Positions 36,419 through 54,573 are shown, counted from the stretch's first letter. The stretch is DNA of 64,000 nucleotides from Spirochaetaceae bacterium (GCA_051531975.1 JAOPTT010000003.1:237119-301118), one strand, 5' to 3'. Notes: generated from the sequence alone by a model not told the origin. A program made the numbers and translations.

Positions 36419-37432
36419 TTATATTTCCCCTAGTAAAAACCATGTCTCGACCTGTTCAAGGTTTTTTATTTTAATTAAACCTCGAGGCTCTAGGTTGAAA
36501 TCATCTTTTAGAAGGTTATAGGTTTCTTTTGAAACTTGAATTTTACCTGGTACACCATGGGATTCCATTCTAGAGGCGAGATTTACAGTATCACCCCAGA
36601 TATCGAACGTAAACTTTTTAGTACCTATAACACCACCAATTACAGGGCCACTATGTATTCCTATTCTAACTTGCAAAGGTATAGACATCTTGTCATTAAA
36701 CTTATGAACAGTGTCTAACATTGCTATAGCCATATCTGCTATAGCATGGGCATGATCCTCACGTTCATCAGGTAGCCCACTAACAACTAAATATGCATCT
36801 CCAATTGTTTTGATTTTTTCTAAACCAAGAGAACTTGATAACATATCAAAAGCTGATATTAATTCATCTAAGATTGTAATCATCTCTACTGGTGTGTGGT
36901 TCTTAAAATACTTCGTAAAACCAACTAGATCACAAAACAGGATTGTAGAGTCTATATACTTATCTGCTATTAGTGTTTCTCCATTTTTAAGTCTCTTTGC
37001 TATAGATACTGGTAAAATATTAGCTAAAAGTAGTTCTGTTTTTTTGTTTTCTTCTTCAAGTAGTTTTTTAGTCTCTTTTAAACTGAAATGCATATAACTT
37101 ATATAAGCACTAATTATTGAGACAAGAATATAACTAGTTATACCCATAAAAACTACTGGATTAAATACATCATCTCCAGTAATAAGAAAAAATGTAGAAC
37201 TTGTTACCACAGAAGATAACAAAGTATAAATTAATCCGTACTTAATATTGGTATTCCAAGTATATATACCTACCAAAAAAGCTCCTATAATAGCAGCCTG
37301 AGTATGAATTATTGGATAAAAAATATTAATAAATATAAAATGAAAAAGTAGCAATATTGGGGCTAAAATAAGCATCTTTTTACTTATTTTAAATTTGACA
37401 TGCCCGTTATTAAAGTTGTTTATTGATATCAC
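36419..37432 (-). CDS. Membrane-bound class III adenylate cyclase
   Basis: LFCDLVGFT, EKIKTIGDAY, FDIWGDTVNLASRMES (K and D specificity residues of ATP-using enzymes); N-terminal TM segments. Confidence 0.9.
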   Translation of the reverse strand: MISINNFNNGHVKFKISKKMLILAPILLLFHFIFINIFYPIIHTQAAIIGAFLVGIYTWNTNIKYGLIYTLLSSVVTSSTFFLITGDDVFNPVVFMGITSYILVSIISAYISYMHFSLKETKKLLEEENKKTELLLANILPVSIAKRLKNGETLIADKYIDSTILFCDLVGFTKYFKNHTPVEMITILDELISAFDMLSSSLGLEKIKTIGDAYLVVSGLPDEREDHAHAIADMAIAMLDTVHKFNDKMSIPLQVRIGIHSGPVIGGVIGTKKFTFDIWGDTVNLASRMESHGVPGKIQVSKETYNLLKDDFNLEPRGLIKIKNLEQVETWFLLGEI

Positions 37433-37580
37433 ACCTACTCCTTCTAAAGAAATTAAATGATATTACGTATTTCCTATACGCACAAGTTAAAATATAATTA
37501 CATAAATGAAGACTATAGTACTCAAATATACATTATCGTAATTATTACTTCTCTAAACCCATAAAACACTACTTAAAACA

Positions 37581-37595
37581 TGGCATAAATAATGC
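37581..37595 (+). promoter_or_regulatory. sigma54 (-24/-12) promoter of the hypothetical nif-linked gene
   Basis: TGGCATAAATAATGC: GG-N10-GC spacing, 24 nt before the ATG. Confidence 0.7.
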
Positions 37596-37619
37596 TTCCT
37601 ATTATTAAGGAGTTTTATT

Positions 37620-38537
37620 ATGTTCCAAGATATAAAACACATAAAATATAGCAACATCAATGGAGACTTAGAATCCATACAACCATTTGAAGAGGTTAAA
37701 ATTAAAACTAGTATAGGCACAATAATCCCTGTTTATAATGTAGAAGATATGGGTAGAAAAAAATTAACCCCAATTAAATTTGATTTAGATGGGAATATAA
37801 AATCTTTACAGCTACAAGATGTTAAAAAAATAAAGACCTCTATTGGAATGTTTTTAACTGAGTTTATTACTTTTTATGCAAGTGGGGAAATGTGTAGACT
37901 TTTCCAACTAAATGGTAAACTTTCTGGGTTTTGGTCAGAGCAAAATGAATATGATTTAGCTAAAACAATAAAGATTTCTACTCCAATTGGAGATATAATT
38001 GGAAAACCTATATATATCCATTTTTATAAATCAGGTGAACTTAAAAGTATTACTTTCTGGCCCAAAGAGAGAGTTTCAGTTCAAGGAGAGTATGGGTTAT
38101 TTGAGATTAAAACTGGTATATCTTTTCACCCTTGTGGTTCACTAAAATCATATGAACCAGTTGAACCAATAATTGTACACACTGCATTAGGAAACATTGA
38201 AGCTTTTGATCCTGATCCTGTAGGAATAAATGGAGAGCGAAACTCATTAGAATTTAATACATCTGGAGATATTTTAAGACTCTCTACAATAAAGTCTCAA
38301 GTAATGGTTATAGATGATGATGGAAACAGTGAAATATTCGCACCTGTGGAAATTATAAGTAGATGTAATGATGAATTATTTGTAATTCAACCCTTAAACA
38401 TTGAATTTAGCGATGATGAGGTAATTTTTAGATATGGATTTAAAATTGCAGGTAAAGCTTCGAGGAATTTAGTATTTGTATTGCAAGAATTTTCTCCACA
38501 AAATCAACTTGCAAGTGTAGGTTGTTGTTCTGAATAA
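37620..38537 (+). CDS. Hypothetical repeat-containing protein associated with the nif cluster
   Basis: 305-aa ORF with AAGGAG RBS; recurring (K)TSIG/TPIG/TALG and FY.SG/FH..G units; C-terminal GCCSE. Confidence 0.8.
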   Translation: MFQDIKHIKYSNINGDLESIQPFEEVKIKTSIGTIIPVYNVEDMGRKKLTPIKFDLDGNIKSLQLQDVKKIKTSIGMFLTEFITFYASGEMCRLFQLNGKLSGFWSEQNEYDLAKTIKISTPIGDIIGKPIYIHFYKSGELKSITFWPKERVSVQGEYGLFEIKTGISFHPCGSLKSYEPVEPIIVHTALGNIEAFDPDPVGINGERNSLEFNTSGDILRLSTIKSQVMVIDDDGNSEIFAPVEIISRCNDELFVIQPLNIEFSDDEVIFRYGFKIAGKASRNLVFVLQEFSPQNQLASVGCCSE

Positions 38538-38619: not shown

Positions 38620-40173
38620 TTATGTTTTAAATTTTTCTATATCGATTCCATATTTCTCCAACCTTAAACCTAACTGCCTATAAGATATACCAAGGTTATC
38701 ACTTGCCTCTTTAAGTTTTCCCCTCGTTCGTTTTAACTCCTCAATTATTAACTCGTATTCTAATATTTCCATATGTTTTTGTAACTTTCCACTGTCTACT
38801 GTGGTAACTTTACTTATTGTTTGCAGAGAGGGAGGCAAATGATAACTGTGTATAACTTCATCATCTACTAAAATAACCGCTCTCTCTATACAGTTTTCAA
38901 GTTCCCTAACATTACCAGGCCAATGATATGTCATTAACATATCGATAGCCGGAGTTGATATTCTTAATACTTTATTATTACTTAAATTAGAATACTTGCT
39001 AATAAACATATTAACTAATTCTGGAATATCAGTTTTCCTCTCTCTTAATGCTGGAACAGTTATTGGAAAAACATCTAGACGATAATATAGGTCCAATCTA
39101 AAAGAACCTTCTTCCACAAGTTTTAGTAGGTCCCTATTGGTTGCAGCAATTACTCTAACATCAACCTTGACCTGTTCGTTTGTTCCAACCTTTTCAAACT
39201 CCCTCTCCTGAATAACCCTTAAGAGCTTAGCTTGTGCATTTAATGTTAATTCTCCTATTTCATCTAAAAAGATAGATCCACCATCTGCAATTTGAAACTT
39301 TCCATCTTTATCGACAATTGCTCCAGTAAAAGAACCTTTCCCATGTCCAAAAAGTTCACTTTCTATTAAATTTTCAGGTAGTGCTGCACAATTAAAAGTT
39401 ACAAAAGGTTTTGTTGCTCGTTCACTAGAATAATGGATAGCCTGTGCTACGAGCTCTTTTCCTGCTCCACTCTCACCAAAGACTAAAACAGTAGAACTTG
39501 TTTTTGCTACACGCTTAATCATAGAAAATAAGTTTTGCATAATGCTAGAATTACCAATTATATTTTCAGGTTTGTATTTATCAATTAAACTCTCTTGTAA
39601 TCGACTATTCTCCGCAACCAAAGAGTGTTCTTCATGAATAGCCTGATGTAGGCTTACCGATCTAGAAATCATAGTTGTTATTATAGTTAAAATTGTTAGA
39701 TCATCTCTTATATACTTCGCTTCTTCATAAGATTTATGAATACTTAAAGCTCCAATAACTTCGTTAGTAGTTTTTACAGGGACACAAATAAATGCTTTTT
39801 TTACACTACTTTTAGTATTTCCTGTTCTATTTAAAAATCTAGGGTCTTTTGATATATCTGGAATAATAATTGATTCTCCAGTGTTGACAACAGTTCCTGT
39901 AATTCCCTCTCCTAGATAATATATTCCTTTCGATTCCTCTTCCTCTGACATGCCAAAAGATGATGAAACTATTATCTGGGAGGTTTTACGGTTTAAAATA
40001 GTCGCCATACCACGTTCTATTTCTAAACTTTCACCCATGAAATTAAATAATCGAGGTAGAATCTCTTTTAAATTCTCCCCTGGGGTGATAATTGATGAAA
40101 TTTTTAGTAACAATGTTAAATTTCGACTATGTCTTTCCTGACATTTATCTTGTAAACATTCTTTTATATCCAA
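38620..40173 (-). CDS. nifA: NifA-type sigma54 enhancer-binding protein (GAF-AAA+-HTH)
   Basis: N-terminal GAF (GEGITG.V..TG), GESGAGKE Walker A, ESELFGH.KGSFTGA, WPGNVRELEN; located inside the nif cluster. Confidence 0.88.
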   Translation of the reverse strand: MDIKECLQDKCQERHSRNLTLLLKISSIITPGENLKEILPRLFNFMGESLEIERGMATILNRKTSQIIVSSSFGMSEEEESKGIYYLGEGITGTVVNTGESIIIPDISKDPRFLNRTGNTKSSVKKAFICVPVKTTNEVIGALSIHKSYEEAKYIRDDLTILTIITTMISRSVSLHQAIHEEHSLVAENSRLQESLIDKYKPENIIGNSSIMQNLFSMIKRVAKTSSTVLVFGESGAGKELVAQAIHYSSERATKPFVTFNCAALPENLIESELFGHGKGSFTGAIVDKDGKFQIADGGSIFLDEIGELTLNAQAKLLRVIQEREFEKVGTNEQVKVDVRVIAATNRDLLKLVEEGSFRLDLYYRLDVFPITVPALRERKTDIPELVNMFISKYSNLSNNKVLRISTPAIDMLMTYHWPGNVRELENCIERAVILVDDEVIHSYHLPPSLQTISKVTTVDSGKLQKHMEILEYELIIEELKRTRGKLKEASDNLGISYRQLGLRLEKYGIDIEKFKT

Positions 40174-41288
40174 GATGTAACCTCACATTTATAAATATTT
40201 ATAACCTCAGAACTTGTTAAAAAGTTCTTCTTAATAATTGCTTTATTTTTTAGTACTTTTAATAATTTAGGAATATCAGCATTTTTATATTTAATACCTG
40301 CATTCTCGAGTAAATGTATAATATTTGATCTACCAGAATGAGTTCCAACAACAATAGAGCTAAAACTTAATCCTTTATCTTCAGGACAGAATGGTTGATA
40401 TGCTAATCTATTTTTTTGCATACCATGGCTATGAATTCCTGACTCATGGGTGAAGACAATATCCCCAACTATTGGTTTATCCACAGGGATAACTCTATTT
40501 GAATAAGATGAAACTAATTTACATAGATCTTTAACTTTTGTTAAATCTACCTTTGATGATAATTTTTTATGCATATCTAAGATAAATACTAATTGTTCTA
40601 AGGATGTATTACCTGCCCGTTCTCCAATACCATTTACTGTAACATTTACAGAGTCAGCTCCATTTTCTAATGCGGTTAGAGCATTTGCAGTTCCTAAGCC
40701 AAGATCGTTATGCCCATGGAAATCAATCTTACCAGAAAATTTATCTCTATATAACTTAATTAGTTGTTTAACATTATTAGGAGTGGTATTTCCTACTGTA
40801 TCTGAAAATCTAATCCTGAATAAATTATGATCTTCAGCAAAATTACATACATCTAGTAAACGACTATGTTCAGATCTAAAACTATCTTGTAGACCTAGCG
40901 ATACAAACTCAAAATTATCTTTAGCGAATGTTACTACTTCAGTTAATTTTAACATTGCACAGGACCAGGAACCTATTTGAGTTTGTAGATGATAACTTGA
41001 TATAGGCATAGAAATATGTATTGTATCCGCACCTGTTTTAAAAGACGCCTTTACATCTTCAATACTTAATCTAGACCATGTCGAAATTCGAGTATTTGTA
41101 CTTTCCGATACTAACCATTTTATAAATTTTATTTGATTCGAACCCATAATTGGAGTACCAGCTTCTATCTCATCAACTCCAATATTCATTAAGCTATGGG
41201 CTATATTAATTTTCTCTTTTATTGAAAAAGAGACACCAGGAGCTTGTTCTCCATCTCTTAGGGTTGTATCAATAATCTCTTTATTCAT
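40164..41288 (-). CDS. nifV: Homocitrate synthase
   Basis: DTTLRDGEQAPG, HGHNDLGL, GIGERAGN, FTHESGIH; nif context. Confidence 0.9.
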   Translation of the reverse strand: MNKEIIDTTLRDGEQAPGVSFSIKEKINIAHSLMNIGVDEIEAGTPIMGSNQIKFIKWLVSESTNTRISTWSRLSIEDVKASFKTGADTIHISMPISSYHLQTQIGSWSCAMLKLTEVVTFAKDNFEFVSLGLQDSFRSEHSRLLDVCNFAEDHNLFRIRFSDTVGNTTPNNVKQLIKLYRDKFSGKIDFHGHNDLGLGTANALTALENGADSVNVTVNGIGERAGNTSLEQLVFILDMHKKLSSKVDLTKVKDLCKLVSSYSNRVIPVDKPIVGDIVFTHESGIHSHGMQKNRLAYQPFCPEDKGLSFSSIVVGTHSGRSNIIHLLENAGIKYKNADIPKLLKVLKNKAIIKKNFLTSSEVINIYKCEVTSWI

Positions 41289-41299
41289 ATAAATAACTA

Positions 41300-41315
41300 T
41301 GCAAAAAGTATGCCA
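41300..41315 (-). promoter_or_regulatory. sigma54 promoter of nifV-nifA
   Basis: Minus strand TGGCATACTTTTTGCA. Confidence 0.85.
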
Positions 41316-41406
41316 TGTCTAAACACGATTAGAAGCGAGTTTAGATACATAAAGACTACACGAATGTATGGATGTTTAATTTCCTCAACTGTAATGTAGG
41401 GAACAC

Positions 41407-42039
41407 TCATGAAACCTTTCCTAAGTTTATCTTATATAAAGTATTGGTCATAAATTTTAAGTCATTAAAGTCGTGACTTATTACTAATATTGGAATATCA
41501 AGTTCTTTGTTTAAACCCTTTATATATCTTAAAATATTTGATCGTAAACAATAATCGACTGCATTAAATGGTTCATCTAAAAGTAATAATTCCGGGGATG
41601 TTAATATTGCTCTACCGATAGCAATTCTTTGAGCCTCCCCCCCAGATACTAAATATGGTTTTGCTGATAAGATTTTCCTTAAATTTAATATCTCGACTAT
41701 TTTATTAAAATCAACATTTTGTTTTTTAATATATCTAAGACCAAACCTTAAATTTTCTTCAATTGTTAAGTGAGGGAATAATAAATTATCCTGAAAAACA
41801 ATACCCACATTTCTTTTATTAGGAGGTGTATTAATTTTTTTTTCCACATGGGTAATATATCTGTTATTTAATTTAACAAAACCTTCTGTAGGTTTCTCTA
41901 ATCCAGCTAAAATATTAAACAGCGATGTTTTTCCTGCTCCTGAATCACCATATATTCCTGTAATACCTTTTCCAAAATGACCTTTCAGTTCTAATTTATA
42001 ATTTAATCGGGGTAGTTTAATGTCAAATTCAAGACTCAT
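41407..42039 (-). CDS. modC: Molybdate ABC transporter ATPase (short form without TOBE domain)
   Basis: GDSGAGKT Walker A, VSGGEAQR, LLLDEPF; follows modB. Confidence 0.88.
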   Translation of the reverse strand: MSLEFDIKLPRLNYKLELKGHFGKGITGIYGDSGAGKTSLFNILAGLEKPTEGFVKLNNRYITHVEKKINTPPNKRNVGIVFQDNLLFPHLTIEENLRFGLRYIKKQNVDFNKIVEILNLRKILSAKPYLVSGGEAQRIAIGRAILTSPELLLLDEPFNAVDYCLRSNILRYIKGLNKELDIPILVISHDFNDLKFMTNTLYKINLGKVS

Positions 42040-42715
42040 TAATTATCCTCCAATTGTTGTATTTTTTATTGAGGGTTGAAGATGAAAACAAAGCTAGAAA
42101 CGAAATAAATATAGAAATTGCAACTAAAAACATTGCATCTCGCCCTCTACCTGGAATCTGTAATAAAGTATACACAGACAGAGGAATTGTTCGTGTCTCC
42201 CCTAATATATTACCAGCAAATGTTATTGTAGCTCCAAACTCTCCTAAGCTACGAGCAAAACCTAAGATTGAACCACTAATAATACCAGGAATTATTAGCG
42301 GTACTATTACTCTAATAAATGTTTCAAATCTTCCTGCACCTAATGTCATTGCTGCTTTCTCCAACTTAGGATCAACCATTTCCATAGAAACTCGTAAACT
42401 TCTTGTAATTAAAGGAAAGGAGACAACCATAGAAGAGAGAATGGCTGCCCCCTCAGTAAATGCTATTCTAAGACCAGTAAATAAATATAATGGAGCACCT
42501 AGTAGGCCATTTTTTCCAAATATCAATAACAGTAGAAATCCAGTGGTAACTGGAGGCATAACAAGAGGAAGATTTATAAAACCATCTATTAATTGCTTTC
42601 CTTTAAACTGTTTTCTTGCCATGATATACGAAACAAATAGAGCAAATGGTAAATTAATTACCGTTGCAAAAAAACCGACCTTAAGAGATAAAAGAACCGT
42701 TACTAGTATATTCAT
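42029..42715 (-). CDS. modB: Molybdate ABC transporter permease
   Basis: LPLVMPPVTTG, FARSLGEFGATITFAGNI. Confidence 0.93.
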   Translation of the reverse strand: MNILVTVLLSLKVGFFATVINLPFALFVSYIMARKQFKGKQLIDGFINLPLVMPPVTTGFLLLLIFGKNGLLGAPLYLFTGLRIAFTEGAAILSSMVVSFPLITRSLRVSMEMVDPKLEKAAMTLGAGRFETFIRVIVPLIIPGIISGSILGFARSLGEFGATITFAGNILGETRTIPLSVYTLLQIPGRGRDAMFLVAISIFISFLALFSSSTLNKKYNNWRIINES

Positions 42716-43458
42716 AGGTTACTAAATCCATTTGTTTTATATATTTGTTTTGCTTCTTCATCCTCTATAAGGAATTTATAGAGATCTGCAGCCTGTTTAT
42801 TATTATTAAGAAGGGCACAGTAATATTCAATTTTATTATGAGATTCTTCTGAAAAAACCTCTACTATTTTAACTTTTTTACTTCTTAATGCATCAGTATT
42901 ATAAACAATCCCGAATTCAGTCTCTGACATTTCGACTACAGATAAAGCTGCTCTTACATTTGCTCCAGGTAGAAGTCTTGATTCCAGAATTTCATACCAA
43001 TCATAAAACTCTAAAACCTCTTTTGCATAGGCTCCTGCAGGTACATAATCTGGGTCACCAACTGAAAGTTTCCCTGTAAAAGATCCCGGAAAACTATTAT
43101 CAAGATTAAATGTTAAGTCACTATCTTTAGGAGATATTAATACTAACGAATTAGATAGAAAAGGTTCTATCCTTATTGTTAGATGTTCGATGTGATCCAT
43201 CCATTTTTTTGATGCTGAAATGTAGATATCGGCAGTGGCACCATTTAAAACTTGTTTTGCTAAGACTCCACTAGAAGCTGGACTAAGCTTTATTTTAATA
43301 CCTGTTTTTGATGAGTACAAATCAGATAATTCCTCCATCAAATCTGTACTACTTGAAGCAATAAAGAGGGTTATATATTCAGATTTATTATTTATTGGTT
43401 TTACAGATATTAAAAAAATAACCAGAGTAATTGTAAATATTAATACTATCTTCTTCAT
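42712..43458 (-). CDS. modA: Molybdate ABC transporter substrate-binding protein
   Basis: ASSS, ASSGVLAKQ, GDPDYVPAGAYA, NVRAAL, GIVY.TDA. Confidence 0.92.
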   Translation of the reverse strand: MKKIVLIFTITLVIFLISVKPINNKSEYITLFIASSSTDLMEELSDLYSSKTGIKIKLSPASSGVLAKQVLNGATADIYISASKKWMDHIEHLTIRIEPFLSNSLVLISPKDSDLTFNLDNSFPGSFTGKLSVGDPDYVPAGAYAKEVLEFYDWYEILESRLLPGANVRAALSVVEMSETEFGIVYNTDALRSKKVKIVEVFSEESHNKIEYYCALLNNNKQAADLYKFLIEDEEAKQIYKTNGFSNL

Positions 43459-47823: not shown

Positions 47824-47839
47824 TGCAATGAGTATGCCA
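47824..47839 (-). promoter_or_regulatory. sigma54 promoter of nifENB-fdx-modABC
   Basis: Minus strand TGGCATACTCATTGCA. Confidence 0.85.
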
Positions 47840-48058
47840 AAAATAAAAAAGTATGGTAAAAAGTAGTAAAAAGGTAATTTTTTACATAGATGTAATAGAT
47901 TAGAGTTTTAAAACAAACATATAGACAAATATGTGAATTCAAGTTTCTGTTTATATATTATTAAAAAAAAGATTAGAACATTAATGTCTACAAGTAGCCG
48001 GTTTATGCCATAAATGTAGTTTAAAGTAATTATAATAATTAAATTCTTTTTATATGTA

Positions 48059-49087
48059 TCACGTATCATAACCCATTTTTATAAGTTCATTTAAATCGTT
48101 ATCGTTAATTTTAACACCCTTTGATCTAGCTTCTTCCAAAGATTTCCACCCTCTCTGCCCGGGATAACGAACCTCTGAAACTCCTGGAACTGGAGTGCTA
48201 TCTAATACCCACGCCATTAAGTCCTCTATTAACATATTGTACTCATCCATATTTCCTAGGGCATCTATATTCAGTGCAAAAACATGGGTATTTTGACCAC
48301 CTACCTTTTCTTTATTAATAGGTTTAGAACCAGCTGCTGCAGTCATGGCCTCTATTAATAGTGCTAAAGATGTACCTCTAAATCCATAGTCAGCACCACC
48401 AAAAGGTAAAATAGTTCCACCGTTTCTTGCCTCATCTGGATTATTACTTGGGTATCCCTCTTTATCCTGATAGATATTGCCAATAGCTTTTACACCATTT
48501 GTAGACATCTGATTAGTCTTTCCCATAGATATTGTAGATGTTGAAAAATCGGCAACAAGTGGTTTTAATCCAGTCTTTTCTCTGTTAAGTGGAAAGCTAA
48601 ACGCCATTGGACTAGTATTTAATTTAGGTTCTTTACCACCAAACATATTAACAAATGCAATATGTGATGTCTGATTCCAAGCCATCATTAAATATCCTTT
48701 TTTTGCCCAATGTGACAGGTGATAACCCATAGTTCCAACCCATCCACCATTAATTAATGAAACAAAACCAAGACCATGATCTTTAGCTAAATAGGCAGCT
48801 CTGTCCATACCCCATAAAATAGGTTCAACATTAGGTGTTTTTGAGCAATCTGCAGTTAGTAGTGCTCCAAACTCATTAATTATTTTAGGAAGGACTATAT
48901 TTTCTGGTGATTTTTTTATATCTCTAATAGTACAATTTAGTGGTGGTAATCCATGTGTATCGACACCAAAACCATGAACTTCAACCTGAGCTGTGGCCAT
49001 TCTATTTGCCCGATCAAATGGTACCCCTAGTTCTACTAATTGTTCTGTATAAAATGTTATTAAATGATTTATCTCTATTTTTTCCAT
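48059..49087 (-). CDS. Ldh_2 family (malate/L-lactate/ureidoglycolate-type) oxidoreductase
   Basis: GVDTHG, NTSPMAF, DFSTS.I..GK, ILPFGG, VRYPG. Confidence 0.8.
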   Translation of the reverse strand: MEKIEINHLITFYTEQLVELGVPFDRANRMATAQVEVHGFGVDTHGLPPLNCTIRDIKKSPENIVLPKIINEFGALLTADCSKTPNVEPILWGMDRAAYLAKDHGLGFVSLINGGWVGTMGYHLSHWAKKGYLMMAWNQTSHIAFVNMFGGKEPKLNTSPMAFSFPLNREKTGLKPLVADFSTSTISMGKTNQMSTNGVKAIGNIYQDKEGYPSNNPDEARNGGTILPFGGADYGFRGTSLALLIEAMTAAAGSKPINKEKVGGQNTHVFALNIDALGNMDEYNMLIEDLMAWVLDSTPVPGVSEVRYPGQRGWKSLEEARSKGVKINDNDLNELIKMGYDT

Positions 49088-49205: not shown

Positions 49206-49631
49206 CTAATATAGATTAACTTGATCTGGTTTGACTATCCAAATTTCATCATCATGATAGACATTTAAAAATATCTTAGTATAGTTACCAAGTTCATTCA
49301 TATTGTTTAGTCTAATTCTAAGGGTGTCTATTTCTTCAGATCCCCACTTTTTTGCAAACTCAAATAGAGCTTCCCTTGGATTTTTTATTGTTGAACTAAT
49401 TATATAATCAGAAAATTCAAGATTATGCATAATCCAGATTTTACTATCGAGGGACTCCGTAGATCTAGCAAACCATATAGAAATATATGGTGCGGCTAAC
49501 CACTCTAAAAAAATAGTCCCATTAAATCTGACCCTTGTTTCACATAGATAATCTAATACATTTGTAAACTCACTATTTGACCACTCTTCTGATGGGGTTG
49601 GAGGTTTAAACTGTTCATTTTTAGATAACAT
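49206..49631 (-). CDS. Hypothetical protein, DUF4826-like
   Basis: Start at ATG 49631 after AAGGAG; W...F...YL, APYISIW, W.., REAL..FA..W pattern recalled from DUF4826. Confidence 0.6.
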   Translation of the reverse strand: MLSKNEQFKPPTPSEEWSNSEFTNVLDYLCETRVRFNGTIFLEWLAAPYISIWFARSTESLDSKIWIMHNLEFSDYIISSTIKNPREALFEFAKKWGSEEIDTLRIRLNNMNELGNYTKIFLNVYHDDEIWIVKPDQVNLY

Positions 49632-49649
49632 TATTATCTCCTTTAATAT

Positions 49650-49689
49650 AAAAAAGAACAGCCGATAACAGTGAGGAAACCGACTGTCC
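49650..49689 (-). terminator. Terminator after nifK
   Basis: Minus strand GGACAGTCGG...TCGGCTGTTC followed by TTTTTT. Confidence 0.7.
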
Positions 49690-49707
49690 AAAAAAATTAA
49701 GGTTTTT

Positions 49708-53419: not shown

Positions 53420-54316
<897 letters not shown>

Positions 54317-54573
54317 TCAGTAATATTTATAGTTTTTTACAATTATGTAAATAAATAAAAGCTATTTGAAGGAATGTGACAGTTATGTAAAGCAGGTTGT
54401 TCATACATGTAAATAAGAGTGTATAAGTTTTAACATTTAGGTAGAAAGTTATATAAAGATATGCAAAACAATGTATTACATAAAGTTAATAAAGAATTTA
54501 TATAAAATTCACATCTCATTTACATTTTAATATTACCTTATATGTAATTAGAATTATTAAGGAGAATATAAAA

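Follow-up and report, generated by a model that had tools for sequence, protein, structure and literature searches.

The window that we analysed, a stretch of 64,000 nucleotides (nt) from a Spirochaetaceae bacterium (GCA_051531975.1 JAOPTT010000003.1:237119-301118), has on its minus strand a complete nif cluster of the anaerobe type, which runs from nifH through nifI1, nifI2, nifD, nifK, a DUF4826 gene, an Ldh_2-family gene, nifE and nifN to nifB, whose product has a NifX-like tail, and continues with a 2Fe-2S ferredoxin gene (fdx), modABC, nifV and the gene for a GAF-AAA+-HTH activator. Next to the activator gene, on the strand opposite the nif genes, lies a gene for a protein of 305 amino acids (Table 1) that is present in single copy in the genome; this target gene is the subject of the present report and appears to be a nif accessory gene that belongs to a family so far uncharacterised. 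An earlier note on this DNA had placed a sigma-54 promoter of the gene's own at 37581, and this assignment was borne out by a perfect match to the -24/-12 pattern.

Promoter and enhancer boxes

Five perfect matches to TGGCAY-N6-TGCW occur in the window, four of which sit upstream of the target gene, nifV, nifE and nifH; when one mismatch was allowed, 14 sites were found against 7.9 expected. Each of these four promoters is preceded by a box of the form TAC-N6-GTA at a nearly constant distance which, counted from where the box starts to where TGGCA starts, is 52 nt at the target gene and 53 to 55 nt at nifV, nifE and nifH. For the form TACAT-N4-GTA the window has nine matches where 3.15 would be expected; a single palindromic site enters this count on both strands. 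Four of these sites are those that stand 52 to 55 nt upstream of the promoters of the target gene, nifV, nifE and nifH. A composite pattern, consisting of the box, a gap of 30 to 50 nt and the promoter, was matched four times in the whole genome of 5,457,215 bases, at the target gene, nifV, nifE and nifH, and the reversed control pattern was not matched anywhere in the genome. With both a -24/-12 promoter and the same box at the distance seen at nif promoters, the target gene is very probably a member of the nif regulon, of which it would form the fourth transcription unit. A scan of the target gene for sigma-70 promoters gave nothing above shuffled sequences. Among the sequencing runs listed, none of RNA contained this DNA, one DNA run that contains it may be its source, and a small metatranscriptome from the same sample had almost none of its sequence words.

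The target gene and nifV share a second, more distal box, a half-site in both cases, so that their boxes stand 52 and 82 nt and 53 and 83 nt from the promoter, respectively; those of nifV read TACATTCGTGTA (at 41368) and TACATTACAGTT (at 41398). The earlier note had given 42 and 72 nt for the target gene and 43 and 73 nt for nifV: the one-base offset between the two genes is the same in both counts, and the difference of 10 nt in the absolute numbers presumably reflects other reference points. Taken as an independent motif (TACAT-N3-TG), the distal box was not enriched in the window, where 15 copies were found against 13.1 expected, and it was rejected as such. Two more half-sites of this kind lie upstream of the proximal nifH box (54389 and 54411, within 54380-54411 on the minus strand), a pattern which suggests that nifH may have several activator sites.

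Table 1. Positions of the target gene, its control elements and neighbouring features, counted from the first base of the window
Feature	Position	Strand	Remarks
Coding sequence (CDS) of the target gene	37620..38537	+	305-amino-acid protein P0001, ATG start; open reading frame (ORF) reading, homologs and AlphaFold2 (AF2) model
Shine-Dalgarno sequence AAGGAG	37607..37612	+	7 nt 5' of the target ATG; direct reading
Sigma-54 (-24/-12) promoter of the target gene, TGGCATAAATAATGCT	37581..37596	+	TGGCAY-N6-TGCW, 0 mismatches
Proximal enhancer box of the target gene, TACATTATCGTA	37529..37540	+	TAC-N6-GTA palindrome, 52 nt upstream of promoter
Distal box of the target gene, TACATAAATGAA	37499..37510	+	TAC-N6-GAA, no more than a half-site; spaced as in nifV, 30 nt upstream of the proximal box
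Terminator-like hairpin	38505..38524	+	Weak, overlaps the end of the target CDS; 1 found against 0.5 expected
GAF-AAA+-HTH sigma-54 activator gene	38620..40173	-	NifA/AnfA/VnfA type by domain matches; convergent with the target gene
nifV	40164-41288	-	Window annotation
nifV promoter region	41300..41368	-	Box 41368-41357, sigma-54 promoter 41315-41300
modABC	41407-43458		Window annotation
nifE promoter region	47824..47894	-	Box 47894-47883 (perfect palindrome TACATCTATGTA), promoter 47839-47824
Ldh_2-family dehydrogenase gene	48059-49087	-	Between nifK and nifE; no nif name
DUF4826 gene	49206-49691	-	Between nifK and nifE; no nif name
nifH	53420-54313	-	Window annotation
nifH promoter region	54280..54349	-	Box 54349-54338, promoter 54295-54280
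Class III adenylate/guanylate cyclase gene	36419-37432	-	HNOBA-like linker; divergent from the target gene

The boxes resemble the enhancer sites of AnfA and VnfA. The available text of one study gives TAC-N6-GTA for the consensus of AnfA in alpha-proteobacteria and suggests GTAC-N6-GTAC as the VnfA site (PMC7294313), and the available text of another predicts the motif CTACATTTTTGTAG for DVUA0143, an AnfA/VnfA-like activator assigned to the nif operon of Desulfovibrio vulgaris (PMC4641369); both the enhancer motif and the use of AnfA/VnfA-like activators by the nif genes of anaerobes were thus predicted earlier in that source (PMC4641369). The boxes described here share the TAC-N6-GTA form and stand at a fixed 52 to 55 nt from a sigma-54 promoter, but they precede genes of the molybdenum (Mo) system, a single NifD being found in the genome. 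rpoN was also found. The neighbouring activator, which has a C-x4-C pair at its N terminus and matched the NCBIfam model TIGR01817 (nifA) best, with 493 bits and under the cut-off of 528.85, presumably binds these boxes.

The sigma-54 promoter of nifV starts 27 nt before the ATG, which predicts a leader of 0 or 1 nt, and the same spacing of 27 to 28 nt precedes homologs of the target gene at three other loci (L009, L084 and L085). Either the sigma-54 transcripts have no leader in these cases, or the start codons may have been misplaced.

Relatives in other genomes

A collection of species genomes yielded 342 relatives, of which the best 80 were examined. Their loci lie in 79 genomes and belong to Chlorobi, Desulfobacterota, Spirochaetota, marine Bacteroidales, Bacillota and some other groups; named carriers include Chlorobaculum thiosulfatiphilum DSM 249, Chlorobium limicola, Desulfobacter curvatus DSM 3379, Desulfobulbus rhabdoformis and Plebeiibacterium marinum. 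Among 50 of these carrier genomes that were tested, 49 had NifD or NifE at E<=1e-50, and in 41 of them NifD passed the curated cut-off; the one carrier without either was a metagenome-assembled genome with the homolog on a contig of 3.5 kilobases (kb). We also scored whole groups of genomes, whose members are not independent, so that the counts carry no P value. The family occurs in 10 of 301 genomes of the window's own class, 29 of which have NifD: 10 of the 29 NifD-positive genomes carry it and none of the 272 NifD-negative ones. The corresponding figures for Desulfobacterota (201 genomes, 4 with the family, 38 with NifD) are 4/38 and 0/163, and those for Clostridia (301 genomes, 300 of them scored for NifD, 11 with the family, 23 with NifD) are 10/23 and 1/277. 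In the latter two groups the central genome had been chosen as a carrier; without it, there remain three carriers in Desulfobacterota, all with NifD, and ten in Clostridia, nine with NifD. In Bacteroidia, where 251 genomes were sampled around a chosen carrier and NifD was not searched, the family was found in this centre and in none of the other 250. Over the three groups scored for NifD, the family is present in 1 of 712 NifD-negative genomes, and the same pattern recurs in four separate phyla. The homologs are clearly not mostly in nondiazotrophs, the outcome that the earlier note had named as fatal to its proposal.

Core nif genes lie within 10 kb of the gene at 10 of the 80 loci (L004, L009, L012, L013, L022, L034, L039, L041, L066 and L069), which span Desulfobacterota, Spirochaetota and Bacillota; overall, the gene stands beside nif genes in four phyla. 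The distance to nifD is 12 to 14 kb, on the same contig, in 4 of the 10 carriers from the window's class, and the gene stands directly beside nifH-I1-I2-D-K-E-N-B at 7 of the 10 clostridial loci fetched. The neighbours of the gene in Chlorobi, which include flavoprotein and efflux genes, and in Bacteroidales were considered as partners and set aside, being lineage specific with none in common. In marine Bacteroidales (L011, L016, L017, L020 and L023), a gene for an Mrp/NBP35-type iron-transfer ATPase is found two genes upstream and one for a ModD-like QRPTase directly downstream; both flanks are related to metal cofactors.

The promoter recurs outside the window's genome. Of 90 homolog loci, 23 have the strict sigma-54 pattern within 300 nt upstream, where the background is 0.007 per 300 nt, and 32 have a slightly relaxed one no more than 110 nt from the start codon, where it is 0.016 per 110 nt; 22 of these 32 have TAC-N6-GTA a further 20 to 130 nt upstream. 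After removal of the window's locus and of five loci that had been fetched twice, the promoter remained at 28 of 84 loci and the box at 19 of the 28. These loci belong to Spirochaetes, Desulfobacterota and Chlorobi, and in Chlorobi the distance of the box is constant at 91 to 94 nt; the nif-type promoter has thus been retained there even after the gene left the nif cluster. The canonical NifA site TGT-N10-ACA, tried as the alternative, was present in only 1 of 29 homolog promoter regions and overlapped nothing conserved, so that TAC-N6-GTA was preferred. On this evidence TAC-N6-GTA is the predicted enhancer that controls the Mo-nif genes of Spirochaetes, and it probably has the same function in Chlorobi.

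Protein family and association with AnfO

The repeated T(S/P)IG...FY.SG units that the earlier note had seen in the protein are real, as is its C-terminal pair of cysteines. Four units of the form [TS]-x-[ILV]-G...F-[YDHN]-x-x-G-x-[ILM] begin at residues 30, 73, 121 and 188, and a fifth, degenerate unit occupies residues 163 to 177; 2,000 shuffled versions of the protein gave no match in 1,993 cases and a single match in 7. The chain ends in VGCCSE, with Cys302 and Cys303, and its other cysteines are at positions 92, 172 and 249. It was also correctly noted that the protein matches no named nif gene: Pfam and NCBIfam gave no family. The AF2 model of the protein (predicted local distance difference test score 88.5, predicted template modelling score 0.85) is all-beta, with the last few residues disordered. 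Foldseek found no meaningful match in the PDB (template modelling score at most 0.22), and a profile search of PDB sequences returned only noise from WD40 and designed beta-propeller proteins (E >= 2.8e-4). VIA-align listed axonemal MORN proteins, the CPAP G-box, engineered OspA sheets, junctophilin and a MORN_2-like protein of Bacteroides at Z scores of 4.4 to 6.6; these matches to a predicted model are compatible with a MORN-type single-layer sheet, at Z values below the level that proves kinship. In the ESM Atlas, only clusters described as putative MORN repeat proteins or as hypothetical were found.

A word-indexed search gave 50 relatives of the same length, with 28 to 63% identity over most of the protein and named at most hypothetical, and in an exhaustive profile search 510 clusters, formed at 50% identity, passed E<=1e-3 and 240 passed E<=1e-30. 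MORN_2 (PF07661) was matched at E<=0.01 by 21 of 46 family members; the matches shown individually had 19 to 27.5 bits, under the gathering score of 29.6. Like MORN_2, the target protein has repeat units, putatively beta-hairpins, with the spacing G...F-Y-x-x-G-x-L-K-S, and its all-beta model, which would likewise be elongated, resembles MORN proteins weakly in fold; it differs in having no PF07661 match of its own, and the conserved C-terminal cysteine tail and NifA-type regulation are peculiar to its family. Taken together, the family is a MORN_2-like, predicted all-beta repeat family of roughly 240 to 510 clusters. MORN_2 proteins include some named YwqK-family antitoxins. We know of no MORN_2 protein that acts with nitrogenase, and the open-access literature that we searched contained none; nor did we find in it a paper on the family of the target protein or on a link of this family to nitrogenase or AnfO.

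The cysteine tail was counted in 260 nonredundant, near-full-length members. At least one cysteine falls within the last 12 residues in 224 and within the last 4 in 193, and exactly one within the last 12 in 115; the clostridial members end in tails resembling CxxCxxCxxC. A second copy in a genome of the window's class (L091, G051:C11:422692-423540) has an in-frame TAA and no terminal cysteine and is probably a decaying paralogue.

The association with AnfO_nitrog (PF09582) is of two kinds. In four cluster representatives, of 527, 536, 497 and 437 amino acids, an AnfO_nitrog module is followed by a domain of the target type, and one of these is named AnfO family protein by NCBI. In Clostridia, a separate ORF of the AnfO family stands immediately before the gene, all ten such adjacent ORFs scoring 140 to 227 bits on PF09582 (cut-off, 30.3). 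These clostridial clusters are of the nif rather than the anf type, since they contain nifE and nifN and have too little space between nifD and nifK for a gene of the G subunit. AnfO-family genes were seen inside clostridial nifHDKEN clusters at L106 to L111, L114, L041 and L060, with two copies at L106, and the AnfO family is therefore not confined to Fe-only nitrogenase systems.

AnfO of Azotobacter vinelandii, a fidelity factor of the Fe-only nitrogenase, offers a working model. As described in the available text of its study, an N-terminal, NifX-like domain binds the apo-FeFe protein, and a tethered C-terminal domain, for which His203 is required, binds the iron-molybdenum cofactor (FeMo-co) and the iron-vanadium cofactor (FeV-co) (PMC11938142); docking to the apo-dinitrogenase combined with cofactor capture by a tethered domain is the scheme that may apply to the target protein. 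Both are nitrogenase-linked accessories, but they have no relation in sequence or fold: the window's protein matched neither PF09582 nor PF02579 (Nitro_FeMo-Co), the AnfO domain being only a fusion partner or neighbour of the family, and AnfO uses a histidine ligand, whereas the family of the target protein has a conserved terminal cysteine. AnfO itself was not found in the window's genome.

The same comparison can be made with NifX, NafY, NifY and NifQ, nif-regulon accessories that handle FeMo-co, its precursor or Mo and whose gap the target protein could fill in this genome. The NifX/NafY/NifY carriers use histidine ligands on an alpha/beta NifX fold without homology to the target protein. 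No free NifX/NafY-type protein was found in the genome, where the only NifX-like domain lies in NifB, and the search for NifQ (PF04891), itself weak, gave no match. The NifQ motif is Cx4Cx2Cx5C; it is absent from the cysteine positions of the window's protein, which likewise has no NifQ match in Pfam. The lack of AnfO, of a free NifX or NafY and, with a weak control, of NifQ leaves room for a helper such as the target protein.

Proposed role and alternatives

The link of the target gene to nitrogenase is strong; its mechanism we infer. That the gene encodes an undescribed nitrogenase accessory factor, as the earlier note proposed, is supported by the phyletic pattern, by the neighbourhood, by the sigma-54 promoter and box in three phyla and by the fusion with, or adjacency to, AnfO, and the protein is probably an unrecognised helper of the enzyme, with an accessory role that is likely to be specific to nitrogenase. 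The best explanation overall, to which we assign a probability of about 0.5, is that it is an accessory of the nif regulon which acts with NifX/AnfO-type domains in the handling of metallocofactor for the anaerobe-type MoFe protein. Because the C-terminal cysteine is conserved, the protein may bind a metal or an iron-sulfur (Fe-S) cluster; that it handles a cofactor or cluster by means of its cysteine tail is a tentative proposal, somewhat less probable than not.

On this proposal, the protein would be a soluble, elongated chain of MORN_2-type beta-hairpin repeats with a flexible C-terminal tail ending in cysteine. A Nif protein or a NifX/AnfO-type domain would dock on the repeat sheet. As the MoFe protein of the anaerobe type matures, the tail, a swinging thiolate arm, would ligate or guard a metallocluster of nitrogenase, which could be FeMo-co, the precursor of FeMo-co, or a species of Fe-S or Mo. 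In NifD, a cysteine holds the terminal Fe of the cofactor. Isolated FeMo-co is handled with thiols, thiophenol in the available text of the AnfO study (PMC11938142), and together with the cysteine ligand in NifD this makes a thiolate carrier chemically reasonable. The fully specified version, in which the sheet docks on apo-NifDK, NifEN or NifX/AnfO-type domains and the terminal cysteine carries or gates FeMo-co or its precursor, so that the protein would be an unrecognised maturation factor of anaerobe-type Mo-nitrogenase, is less likely than not. A complex prediction for NifD and the target protein, made from a NifD alignment of 46 rows and without controls, gave a score of 0.00, which speaks neither for nor against binding.

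Several observations weigh against the best explanation given above. The family is absent from most NifD-positive genomes (19/29 in the window's class, 34/38 in Desulfobacterota and 13/23 in Clostridia) and is thus not essential for nitrogenase in general, and one clostridial genome (G1014), the only such carrier found, has a copy and no gene for nitrogenase component 1; this copy (L105, G1014:C5), which lies 2.5 kb from the end of its contig, has BipA and a TM1266-like gene as neighbours. The copies of Chlorobi and Bacteroidales are not adjacent to nif genes. A terminal cysteine is missing from 36 of the 260 members counted, including a subgroup that ends in LTLSGDLNK and a member that is adjacent to nif genes (L111), so that the tail is not indispensable. 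Transcription from the sigma-54 promoter is predicted to start at about position 37607, which leaves a leader of about 13 nt that begins at the Shine-Dalgarno sequence. Finally, the protein itself matched 0 Pfam families at E<=0.01, and the gap left by NifQ is less secure than it might appear, the PF04891 search having matched none of 14 control genomes. The copy of G1014 is followed by an unknown ORF of 628 amino acids and by the TM1266-like gene, of the 'iron-only hydrogenase system regulator' type.

The first of the alternatives is that the protein is a regulatory or protective binder which docks on NifH or NifDK to switch the enzyme off, to stabilise it or to shield it, for example under a transient oxidant or inhibitor, with the cysteine tail as a redox sensor. 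The co-regulation with nif genes, the phyletic pattern and the neighbourhood fit this proposal as well; MORN-type sheets, to which the weak fold matches (Z scores of 4.4 to 6.6) point, are protein-binding scaffolds, and dispensability in many diazotrophs is usual for protective factors. The gene has no specific tie to nifI1 or nifI2, however, and its fusion with or adjacency to AnfO points to maturation, given the apo-dinitrogenase binding and cofactor capture described for AnfO in the available text (PMC11938142). We consider such a binder unlikely.

Less probable still is a donor of Mo or Fe-S that would stand in for NifQ, the cysteine-rich tail, alone or in an oligomer, holding a Mo-Fe-S or Fe-S species for NifEN or NifH. 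The CxxCxxCxxC-type tails of Clostridia would suit such a donor, as would the position of nifV immediately upstream of the gene at L004, L066 and L069, the Mrp/NBP35-type ATPase and ModD-like QRPTase genes that flank the marine Bacteroidales copies, the lack of a NifQ match in the genome and the proximity of modABC, both in the window and at L060, L106 and L111. Adjacency of mod genes is common for nif clusters anyway, however, the NifQ search had no positive control, and most members have only one or two cysteines in the tail (a single one in 115/260), too few for a cluster held by one chain. Very improbable is the last alternative, in which the protein serves general nitrogen starvation, is unrelated, or is an immunity protein of the YwqK type, and has no more than the promoter type in common with nif genes. 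The YwqK-family names of some MORN_2 proteins, the copies of Chlorobi and Bacteroidales that are not adjacent to nif genes and the copy of G1014 without nitrogenase would accord with it, but the family occurs in very few NifD-negative genomes (1/712) and in none of the 250 further Bacteroidia, the window's protein has no NCBIfam match and no toxin-like neighbour, its gene standing between those for an adenylate cyclase and a NifA-like activator, and the box with promoter marks only nif units genome-wide.

Lists of nif accessory genes stem largely from Proteobacteria, and anaerobe-type nitrogenase maturation, with its few known helpers, bears on the transfer of minimal nif gene sets to other hosts. 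A family that is restricted to diazotrophs, co-regulated with nif genes in at least three phyla and fused to AnfO in Clostridia is a concrete candidate for a missing helper. If the protein is a maturation factor, the work done in Proteobacteria by proteins of the NafY/NifX/NifQ type would be done by it in Clostridia, Chlorobi, sulfate reducers, Spirochaetes and marine Bacteroidales, and AnfO-family proteins may act on Mo-nitrogenases, beyond the Fe-only enzyme.

With regard to the surroundings of the target gene, the cyclase gene shares with it an intergenic region of 187 nt, which carries the enhancer boxes. A gene similar to the Ldh_2-family gene between nifK and nifE was also observed near the nif cluster at another locus (L107).

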